A stretch of 30,752 nt of DNA from assembly GCF_003334315.1 (NCBI RefSeq), contig NZ_QOWR01000055.1; one strand, given 5' to 3'. This document shows, piece after piece, positions 11,016 through 12,994 of this stretch. The notes under the pieces were generated by a model. The model worked only from the letters and a program-made list of their open reading frames with translations, did not search any database and was not told the origin of the DNA. Within the stretch, counting starts at the first letter, position 1, and every line of letters begins with the position of its first letter. The stretch is from Escherichia coli. Lineage in GTDB: Bacteria; Pseudomonadota; Gammaproteobacteria; Enterobacterales; Enterobacteriaceae. Position numbers and translations under genes: made by a program.

Positions 11016-11566
11016 AATAAAGAAAACCTTTTAACGCCAAAACAAAAAAGTATTTCGTCGCGTAGTGTAAGCGATCACTTATTATATTTCCACAAAATTT
11101 AATCTATTTACAGTCCTGCGCGAGATTATTTCAGCTGTTATTTTCTGAAACTCTCAGAATAATTTCAAGATTATATATTAGCCATTTTGATGAGTAATTT
11201 AGATTATTGGTGAACAGAACGGCGCTCTCTGCTCGCTAATTCCGCAAGCCTGACAAAACCGAAGTGAATAAAAATGCAATATAACAGAATAAAAGAAAAC
11301 ACCCCTCACTGGTGCTTTCTGCTGTTAATGTACATTTTCTGGCATAAAAAATACTGTAAATGACACGGTCACGACATACACCGAATTCTCTACGCTTATA
11401 GCGTTACCTCACCCCCAAACTTTCATTAGTGAAATTAAAGGAAAGGTCATATCTAATTGATTTAATTGAAAATAAATCATATCGGCATGTAAAAATCCAC
11501 AATGTACAAAAAACGAGCCGTTACGGAATATTTTATCTACAAAAACTGACTAAATAAAAATTTTTC

Positions 11567-11580
11567 ACTAATTGATTAGT
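11567..11580. promoter_or_regulatory. Perfect 14-bp palindrome ACTAATTGATTAGT about 100 bp upstream of alaE; candidate operator
   Basis: Seen directly in sequence inside the 667-bp AT-rich stpA-alaE intergenic region. Function is inferred only. Confidence 0.3.
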
Positions 11581-11682
11581 CATAGCCAGCGATATACGCT
11601 ATGCGAAAATGCAGATGGCAATGAGATCCACTGTTTTCATCTCCATTAACATCCCATTACGCTTTTATTAAGGAGCATTAGC

Positions 11683-12132
11683 ATGTTCTCACCGCAGTCA
11701 CGCTTGCGTCATGCAGTTGCAGATACGTTCGCGATGGTTGTTTACTGTTCTGTCGTGAACATGTGTATTGAAGTTTTCCTCTCCGGAATGAGCTTCGAAC
11801 AGTCTTTTTATTCCAGATTGGTAGCGATTCCGGTGAACATCTTAATTGCATGGCCATACGGTATGTACCGTGATCTGTTTATGCGCGCGGCACGCAAAGT
11901 TAGCCCGTCGGGCTGGATAAAAAATCTGGCGGATATCCTGGCTTATGTGACGTTCCAGTCACCGGTGTATGTGGCGATCTTGTTAGTGGTGGGCGCAGAC
12001 TGGCATCAGATTATGGCGGCGGTCAGTTCAAACATCGTTGTTTCGATGTTGATGGGGGCGGTTTATGGCTACTTCCTCGATTATTGCCGCCGACTGTTTA
12101 AAGTCAGCCGTTACCAGCAGGTAAAAGCCTGA
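11683..12132 (+). CDS. alaE: L-alanine exporter AlaE (YgaW)
   Basis: 149-aa ORF, membrane protein; RBS aaggag 6 bp upstream of ATG. Confidence 0.9.
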
Positions 12133-12143
12133 CTCTTCTTTTC

Positions 12144-12170
12144 GCGACTGGCATCGCCAGTCGCGTCTTT
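12144..12170 (+). terminator. Hairpin terminator candidate after alaE, overlapping the 3' end of convergent ygaC
   Basis: Perfect 8-bp stem gcgactgg/ccagtcgc with 5-nt loop, followed by gtcttt; located 12 bp after the alaE stop. Confidence 0.45.
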
Positions 12171-12513
12171 AACTGGCTTCGCCAAATAAACCATTCAAAT
12201 AACGTTCAAGCGCAACACGCGAACTAAAGCCATGCGGGATACCGTAATGCTCGTGTCGCTCGCCTGCTAAATAGAGCGGAAATTGCTGGTAATGATCGCA
12301 AGTTTTAATATCGGAAGCGGGTTCAGCCAGTGTCGAACTGCGTTCTTTTAATGTTGGATGAATTACCAGAGCGGTACGTCCCATTCGCGCTTCGCGATTA
12401 ACATAGACATAATTTTCCCCACGGCGGTAACCATACGCTTTCTGGGTTACCACATCGACAGTAAAACCGACTTTTTCAAGTACGCGCGCCACCTCGTCTG
12501 GTCGTAAATACAT
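12169..12513 (-). CDS. ygaC: Uncharacterised protein YgaC
   Basis: 114-aa minus-strand [42 protein letters not shown]...; conserved position between alaE and ygaM. Confidence 0.88.
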
Positions 12514-12664
12514 ATTTGATCCTCGTTATTATCAACCGCGGGCCTACCTTACCTGATTGCGCATTCACAACGCTTTCAGAAAAGTCCATAAAGCCGCGAT
12601 GAACCTCAGTTAAGAAAATTATGGTCTACACTGAAAATTACATCGAATTCTAATGGGGGATCAT

Positions 12665-12994
12665 ATGTTTAACCGACCGAACCGCAACGACGTTGATGAT
12701 GGCGTGCAGGATATCCAGAATGATGTCAATCAATTAGCTGACAGCCTCGAATCTGTATTGAAGTCCTGGGGCAGCGACGCCAAAGGGGAAGCTGAAGCCG
12801 CACGCAGTAAAGCTCAGGCATTGCTGAAAGAAACCAGGGCGCGAATGCATGGTCGTACTCGCGTCCAGCAAGCCGCGCGCGATGCCGTTGGCTGCGCGGA
12901 TTCTTTTGTTCGTGAAAGACCCTGGTGTAGCGTGGGTACAGCAGCTGCGGTAGGTATTTTTATCGGCGCACTGTTAAGCATGCGCAAATCGTAG
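12665..12994 (+). CDS. ygaM: ElaB/YqjD-family membrane-anchored ribosome-associated protein YgaM
   Basis: ORF 12653..12994; I prefer the ATG at 12665 (MFNRPNRNDVDD..., 109 aa), but 12653 is possible. C-terminal transmembrane anchor (GTAAAVGIFIGALL). Confidence 0.85.
   Translation: MFNRPNRNDVDDGVQDIQNDVNQLADSLESVLKSWGSDAKGEAEAARSKAQALLKETRARMHGRTRVQQAARDAVGCADSFVRERPWCSVGTAAAVGIFIGALLSMRKS

Follow-up and report, generated by a model that had tools for sequence, protein, structure and literature searches.

The window analysed here, a 30,752-nucleotide stretch of Escherichia coli DNA (contig NZ_QOWR01000055.1 of assembly GCF_003334315.1), carries two divergently oriented genes that share one long upstream region. 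stpA, which encodes a paralogue of H-NS, lies at 10611..11015 on the minus strand, and alaE, which encodes an L-alanine exporter, lies at 11683..12132 on the plus strand; both coding sequences come from the list of open reading frames (ORFs) and from the RefSeq annotation of MG1655 and of strain W5-6, in which the intergenic sequence is 100% identical. The gap between them runs from 11016 to 11682. An earlier note, made from the sequence before any database had been searched, had described this gap as an unusually long, AT-rich, non-coding region of 667 bp without an ORF of 60 amino acids or more, and that description is borne out. The GC content of the gap is 0.34, compared with 0.51 for the whole window, its longest ORF encodes 42 amino acids, and no other intergenic gap in the window is as long, the next being 353 bp.

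The same intergenic region is found once each in 5420 of 5426 complete E. coli genomes, always on the chromosome, where stpA and alaE flank it and no annotated feature lies within it. Over 1.5 kb, the window differs from MG1655 at 22 positions and by one 1-bp indel. The locus is core-genome DNA that was not horizontally acquired, and we are highly confident that this is the back-to-back promoter region already known for stpA and alaE of E. coli. A separate observation concerns the isolate E. coli QL57EC, in which IS1X2 has inserted in place of the right half of the spacer and the 5' end of alaE (locus L084, 2843-3610) and alaE is annotated as a partial pseudogene; alaE and its promoter are thus dispensable in at least one isolate.

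Comparison across genera divides the spacer into parts that have been held constant and parts that have not. We collected 80 alaE loci, one genome per species, from Escherichia, Salmonella, Citrobacter, Enterobacter, Klebsiella, Raoultella, Kosakonia, and others. stpA lies divergently upstream of alaE in 58 of these 80 loci, in each case across an AT-rich spacer, 475-789 bp long, which argues that the long spacer is ancestral to the gene pair. The resulting footprint, which covers 59 stpA-alaE spacers and 81 alaE loci from about 20 enterobacterial genera, has three zones: an stpA module at approximately 11016-11095, a weakly conserved centre at approximately 11150-11448, and an alaE module composed of 11449-11466 and 11490-11605. 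What is new here is this genus-level footprint, which sets the two conserved promoter modules apart from the variable sequence between them, and the placement on the alaE -35 hexamer of an inverted repeat that the earlier note had proposed as a plausible operator.

On the stpA side, a sigma-70 promoter occupies 11064..11092 on the minus strand, with a -35 hexamer TGGAAA (11092..11087), a 17-bp spacer, and a -10 hexamer TACACT (11069..11064). The two hexamers coincide with sequence blocks, TTTCCA and AGTGTA on the plus strand, that are conserved between genera. The stpA transcript recorded by SMRT-Cappable-seq extends from 2798537 to 2798047 in MG1655 coordinates (Yan et al. 2018, PMC6131387), and its start, 2798537 on the minus strand, corresponds to window position 11056, 1 nt from the predicted position of 11057. 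The 5' UTR defined by this start is 41 nt long (11016..11056, minus strand); it begins with a G at 11056 and contains a Shine-Dalgarno (SD) sequence, AAGG at 11030..11027, in a conserved block. At the other end of the gene, Term-seq (Adams et al. 2021) places the primary stpA 3' end at 2798048; it also lists a strong 3' end internal to stpA, at window position 10763 on the minus strand (MG1655 2798243). A different stpA promoter given by Shimada et al., TTTACA-17-TTTAAT, has no match in the window.

On the alaE side, a sigma-70 promoter lies at 11572..11600 on the plus strand, with a -35 hexamer TTGATT (11572-11577), a 17-bp spacer, and a -10 hexamer TACGCT (11595-11600). Full-length SMRT-Cappable-seq reads define an alaE transcript from 2799086 to 2799651 (Yan et al. 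2018, PMC6131387), and alignment of MG1655 to the window puts the start, 2799086 on the plus strand, at window position 11605, 2 nt from the prediction based on the -10 hexamer. The mapped start is 5 nt downstream of the last -10 base instead of the usual 7, so the hexamer register could be off by 2 nt, with TATACG as the -10 and a spacer of 15 bp. The arrangement of TTGnnn, exactly 17 bp, and TAnnCT is found in 80 of the 81 alaE loci, with a spacer length that is invariant. The stpA and alaE starts are 549 bp apart and fire outward; the mapping of transcription start sites that the earlier note had proposed as a check is available in published form, with starts at 11605 for alaE and 11056 for stpA.

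The alaE 5' UTR spans 78 nt (11605..11682, plus strand), from the G at 11605 given by the SMRT-Cappable-seq start, and contains the SD sequence AAGGAG at 11670-11675. A search with RNAalifold found no covarying or conserved secondary structure in it. Within this otherwise variable leader, a short motif, AAAnC(A/G)C(T), is conserved at 11627-11634 (approximately +23 to +30); it reads ATCCACTG in E. coli and AAAACGCT or AAAGCACT in others, and has no associated structure. Citrobacter amalonaticus (locus L011, about 2790-2990) carries a GC-rich insertion of about 130 bp between the alaE promoter and the SD sequence (…GGGTTGCGGGAAAAAACGGCG…GCCCCTGAGGGGCGAAGCCC…), which lengthens its alaE 5' UTR to about 210 nt and may be a repeat element.

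Upstream of the alaE promoter, conservation extends well beyond the hexamers. The nearer part is an AT-rich module at 11490..11565 on the plus strand (-115 to -40), which is a candidate for Lrp sites, a UP-like element, or both. It includes CGGAATATTTTATCTACAAAAAC at 11526-11548, which reads CAGAGyATTTTATCGACAAAAAG in other genera and begins with the block CGGAATATTTTATC (11526-11539), and a near-invariant tract, AAATAAAAAT, at 11552-11561. The more distant part, block A (ATAwCnnATTGATTT, 11449..11466, plus strand, -156 to -139), is conserved across genera and is a candidate upstream Lrp site. The order of elements in the promoter-proximal part is fixed: the A-tract AAATAAAAAT, then CTArTTG, 17 bp, and TAnnCT. 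The same geometry recurs at about 20 loci that have no neighbouring stpA, and the upstream module is likewise present at loci of this kind; a module that persists without stpA next door belongs to alaE. The Lrp footprint of Ihara's 2017 work reportedly extends from -161 to -83, equivalent to 11522-11600 if counted from the ATG and to 11444-11522 if counted from the start site, and under either numbering it would fall within the conserved alaE module.

It is worth asking whether this conservation acts at the level of DNA at all. alaE could instead be transcribed mainly from an upstream promoter, GTGAAA-17-TCTAAT at 11429-11457, in which case the conserved stretch 11505-11605 would be an RNA leader. 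That hexamer pair does exist in the window and was listed by Shimada et al. (PMC3946193), and its -10 is overlapped by block A. However, the full-length capped reads begin at 2799086, that is, at window position 11605 and not near 11465, and the GTGAAA hexamer lies in non-conserved sequence. Moreover, the conserved block consists of A/T tracts without stem potential, the real 5' UTR is the one described above as free of covarying structure, and the invariant 17-bp geometry of TTG...TAnnCT fits a promoter. An RNA leader fed by an upstream promoter thus seems to us extremely unlikely, and the listed hexamers were set aside as present in the window while the mapped start lies elsewhere.

With the promoter at 11572..11600 as the preferred reading, the degree of constraint upstream of it deserves comment. 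A 55-bp core at -79 to -25 (CAGAGyATTTTATCgACAAAAAg, approximately 5 bp, AAATAAAAAT, 5-6 bp, CTArTTG) shows almost no variation among about 80 enterobacterial species, regardless of whether stpA is the neighbouring gene. Because this core is held more tightly than the degenerate sites that Lrp usually tolerates, either a fixed architecture of Lrp and RNA polymerase or a further factor is conceivable. We consider it unlikely, but worth stating, that the core reflects such a fixed architecture or provides the site for a further, alaE-specific factor that helps to sense alanine.

One symmetric feature of the alaE promoter is ACTAATTGATTAGT at 11567..11580 (unstranded), which the earlier note had presented as a perfect 14-bp palindrome about 100 bp upstream of alaE and as a plausible operator. 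The distance to the ATG is as it had said. The symmetry is imperfect: the reverse complement of ACTAATTGATTAGT is ACTAATCAATTAGT, and the element is a 6-bp inverted repeat with arms ACTAAT and ATTAGT around a non-symmetric 2-nt TG spacer, whose extension is blocked by C/C at the next position. Because transcription starts at 11605, the repeat lies at -38 to -25 and covers the -35 hexamer, an overlap that follows from the published start.

In principle, a dimeric regulator, either a repressor or a class II activator, could use this repeat as an operator over the alaE -35. An overlap with the -35 hexamer is a common operator position, the left arm is conserved, and the repeat is kept in diverse E. 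coli strains. Chance, however, readily supplies such symmetry in DNA of this composition: in 2000 shuffles of the gap, inverted repeats whose arms were 6 bp or longer and 0-4 nt apart numbered 1.3-1.6 on average, and about 70% of shuffles contained at least one. The dyad at 11567-11580 was therefore not rarer than expected from these shuffles, which places it at chance level. Comparison between species separates the two arms. The left arm and TG lie within CTArTTG, the conserved block in which the -35 TTG is found. The right arm occupies the variable half of the hexamer and part of the promoter spacer, and it is already degenerate in close relatives: E. albertii has ATTACC, E. whittamii has ATAAGT, and the corresponding sequence in other genera is unrelated, so that conservation of both half-sites was not found among the 81 orthologous alaE loci. 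A perfect 6+2+6 repeat stands at the homologous place in only 2 of the 81, even though the surrounding promoter is near-invariant. In addition, a limited literature search names Lrp alone as a regulator of alaE. An operator at this repeat is thus very improbable in our assessment; the 6+2+6 repeat is a lineage-specific coincidence. Its left arm belongs to the -35 TTG block, and its right arm is promoter-spacer sequence free of constraint.

Two further repeats were seen near these coordinates. One is a 27-nt direct repeat of 70% identity (11436-11462 and 11551-11577), spaced by 115 bp, with both copies ending in CTAATTGATT; the other is a perfect 10-nt inverted repeat, ATTAGTGAAA/TTTCACTAAT, at 11425-11434 and 11563-11572, with 128 nt between the arms. 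Both are at about chance level for AT-rich DNA and have their upstream copies in non-conserved sequence, and neither was retained as an element.

In regard to the proteins that act on the spacer, much has been established by experiment. Ziegler & Freddolino 2023 (PMC10127797), who use the stpA-alaE locus as a model, report ChIP-seq, PalaE-lacZ reporter, and qRT-PCR data for it. Two strong Lrp peaks appear in minimal medium, and one of them persists when leucine, isoleucine, and valine (LIV) are supplied; alaE is under slight repression by Lrp in minimal medium and strong activation in LIV medium (PMC10127797). The second Lrp peak lies more than 1 kb away, within the ygaP ORF, and its deletion cuts Lrp-dependent activation of stpA more than 5-fold; by atomic force microscopy (AFM), Lrp bridges the stpA-alaE fragment, and leucine abolishes the bridging (PMC10127797). 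According to PMC6801825, which cites Ihara 2017, Lrp together with L-alanine or L-leucine exerts positive control on alaE. stpA depends on Lrp in minimal medium, and H-NS silences the gene (PMC4668568, citing Free & Dorman 1997). Furthermore, in genomic SELEX the spacer is bound in vitro by RpoD holoenzyme as well as by H-NS (Shimada et al. 2014, PMC3946193).

These reports agree with most of what the earlier note had said about regulation. The spacer is an H-NS and Lrp target, as Lrp ChIP-seq and AFM (PMC10127797) and H-NS SELEX (PMC3946193) had already made public; alaE responds to alanine and Lrp (PMC6801825, PMC10127797); and stpA is regulated by H-NS and Lrp (PMC4668568). The regulatory reading is correct but is established knowledge. 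The suggestion that the DNA is curved did not find support: power of AA/TT dinucleotides at 10-11.3 bp, a crude proxy for curvature and for helically phased A-tracts, was not above that of shuffled sequences (P = 0.13-0.57, with P = 0.13 for the whole gap). The AT content of the spacer is well above background, as it is for regions bound by H-NS and StpA.

Motif searches add little resolution to this picture. The Lrp SELEX consensus, YAGHAWATTWTDCTR, is too degenerate to be decisive and has three matches in the spacer, each with three mismatches; over the whole window, 41 matches were counted compared with 40 expected by chance. The H-NS nucleation motif, tCGATAAATT, has no good match in the spacer, its one site there (11530-11539) having two mismatches and being at chance level. 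Because motif counts for both proteins are at chance level, no individual site is assignable from sequence. The conserved alaE module is also more invariant than usual Lrp sites, and from the alignments it may be that an additional factor contributes, although we would give this idea only a small chance of being right.

Taken together, the literature and the footprint suggest how the region works. As published, Lrp occupies the spacer in vivo, slightly repressing alaE in minimal medium and strongly activating it with leucine (LIV medium); stpA is activated through an Lrp bridge to the ygaP site more than 1 kb away, and H-NS, which binds the spacer in vitro, silences stpA. On the alaE side, the conserved AT-rich blocks at -156 to -40 may constitute an Lrp-binding array, possibly with a UP-like element at -54 to -40, and this array would feed a weak -35, TTGATT, and a -10, TACGCT, held at the invariant 17-bp spacing.

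The part of the spacer between the two modules has a different character. The central region at 11150..11448, which has no assigned strand, is transcribed from neither of the two promoters, and no conserved element was found in it. Its mean column identity is 75% among Escherichia species. Between the source strain of the window and E. coli EC444, the centre diverges by 9.0%; the same strain pair differs by 0.75% in the part of the spacer nearest stpA and by 1.2-2.5% in the genes on either side. Judged by this divergence, the approximately 300 bp between the modules behaves as AT-rich filler under roughly neutral evolution. We also observed that spacer identity is 90-95% in 595 of the 5420 genomes.

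The earlier note had pointed out that a spacer of this length leaves room for an unannotated small RNA or small ORF. Points in its favour are the 549 bp between the start sites, several ORFs of 20-42 codons, and a terminator-like hairpin on the minus strand (11320..11294). A transcript is also on record that would cross the spacer: Supplementary Data 3 of the SMRT-Cappable-seq study (PMC6131387) extends the stpA operon as b2671|b2669, a ygaC-stpA read-through (window 11016-12700 on the minus strand, MG1655 2798047-2800694) that would run antisense to alaE. As the ygaC start at 2800694 on the minus strand lies beyond ygaM, the read-through would be antisense to ygaM as well. It is the only extra transcript on record across the spacer.

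The searches gave no support for such a gene. Rfam gave no match in the E. coli spacer (E <= 1) or in eight other-species loci, most from other genera (gathering threshold); a match to rli43 was spurious, at 16.9 bits against a gathering score of 100. No annotation of an RNA or small protein exists here in MG1655 or in the RefSeq genomes. The hairpin at 11294..11320, which came from a consensus scan, was judged non-functional, its stem being lost in other Escherichia and no 3' end falling there among the Term-seq entries listed. In a conservation screen, no ORF of 15-42 codons was kept open beyond the closest Escherichia lineages. One of them, a 20-codon upstream ORF at 11609..11671 on the plus strand, begins 4 nt after the alaE start and has a stop codon that overlaps the alaE SD sequence; it was likewise judged non-functional, as its full length is retained only in E. 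coli, Escherichia sp. MOD1, and E. albertii, with a truncated version in E. whittamii-like Escherichia and none in other genera. Among the entries listed, Term-seq (Adams et al. 2021) has no 3' end at 2798500-2799099, and SMRT-Cappable-seq has no end coordinate at 2798600-2798999. The hairpin and every ORF are thus lost outside the closest relatives, and the centre differs by 9% even between two E. coli strains. The searches for Rfam families, conserved ORFs, hairpins, and 5' UTR structure, together with the Term-seq entries listed, therefore speak against a hidden gene, and we think it highly unlikely that the long spacer conceals an unannotated small RNA or small protein gene. Filler between two promoter modules remains the reading we prefer.

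Our findings fit into what is already a published model for DNA bridging by Lrp and for the alanine- and leucine-responsive control of the AlaE "safety valve" exporter. Their main use is a negative one, in that the palindrome should not be taken as an operator and the spacer holds no conserved small RNA or small protein. The footprint coordinates of both promoter modules could also guide mutagenesis of Lrp sites.

Several known systems resemble this region to different degrees. The H-NS type-A divergent spacers of Shimada et al. (2014) are alike in their low GC content (34% here, compared with 51% for the window), in SELEX binding of both RpoD and H-NS, and in the silencing of stpA by H-NS. 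Compared with spacers silenced by H-NS and StpA, however, the stpA-alaE region is core-genome DNA, without a good match to tCGATAAATT and without significant A-tract phasing. Closer in their regulation are ilvIH, dadAX, and oppA, which, like stpA-alaE, have AT-rich upstream arrays of at least 100 bp, effector-modulated control by Lrp, and secondary peaks indicating bridging; PMC10127797 deals with dadAX and oppA together with alaE. In contrast with these three, individual Lrp sites at stpA-alaE are not assignable by consensus, and whereas oppA is simply derepressed, leucine or alanine makes Lrp a strong activator at alaE (PMC10127797). The closest counterpart is the Lrp-bridged stpA-alaE region of E. 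coli K-12 (Ziegler & Freddolino, mBio 2023; Kroner et al. 2019; Ihara et al. 2017), which is the same locus with the same genes and promoters. Nothing substantive separates the two, and what has been published on Lrp peaks, reporter activity, and bridging seen by AFM holds directly for the region described here.
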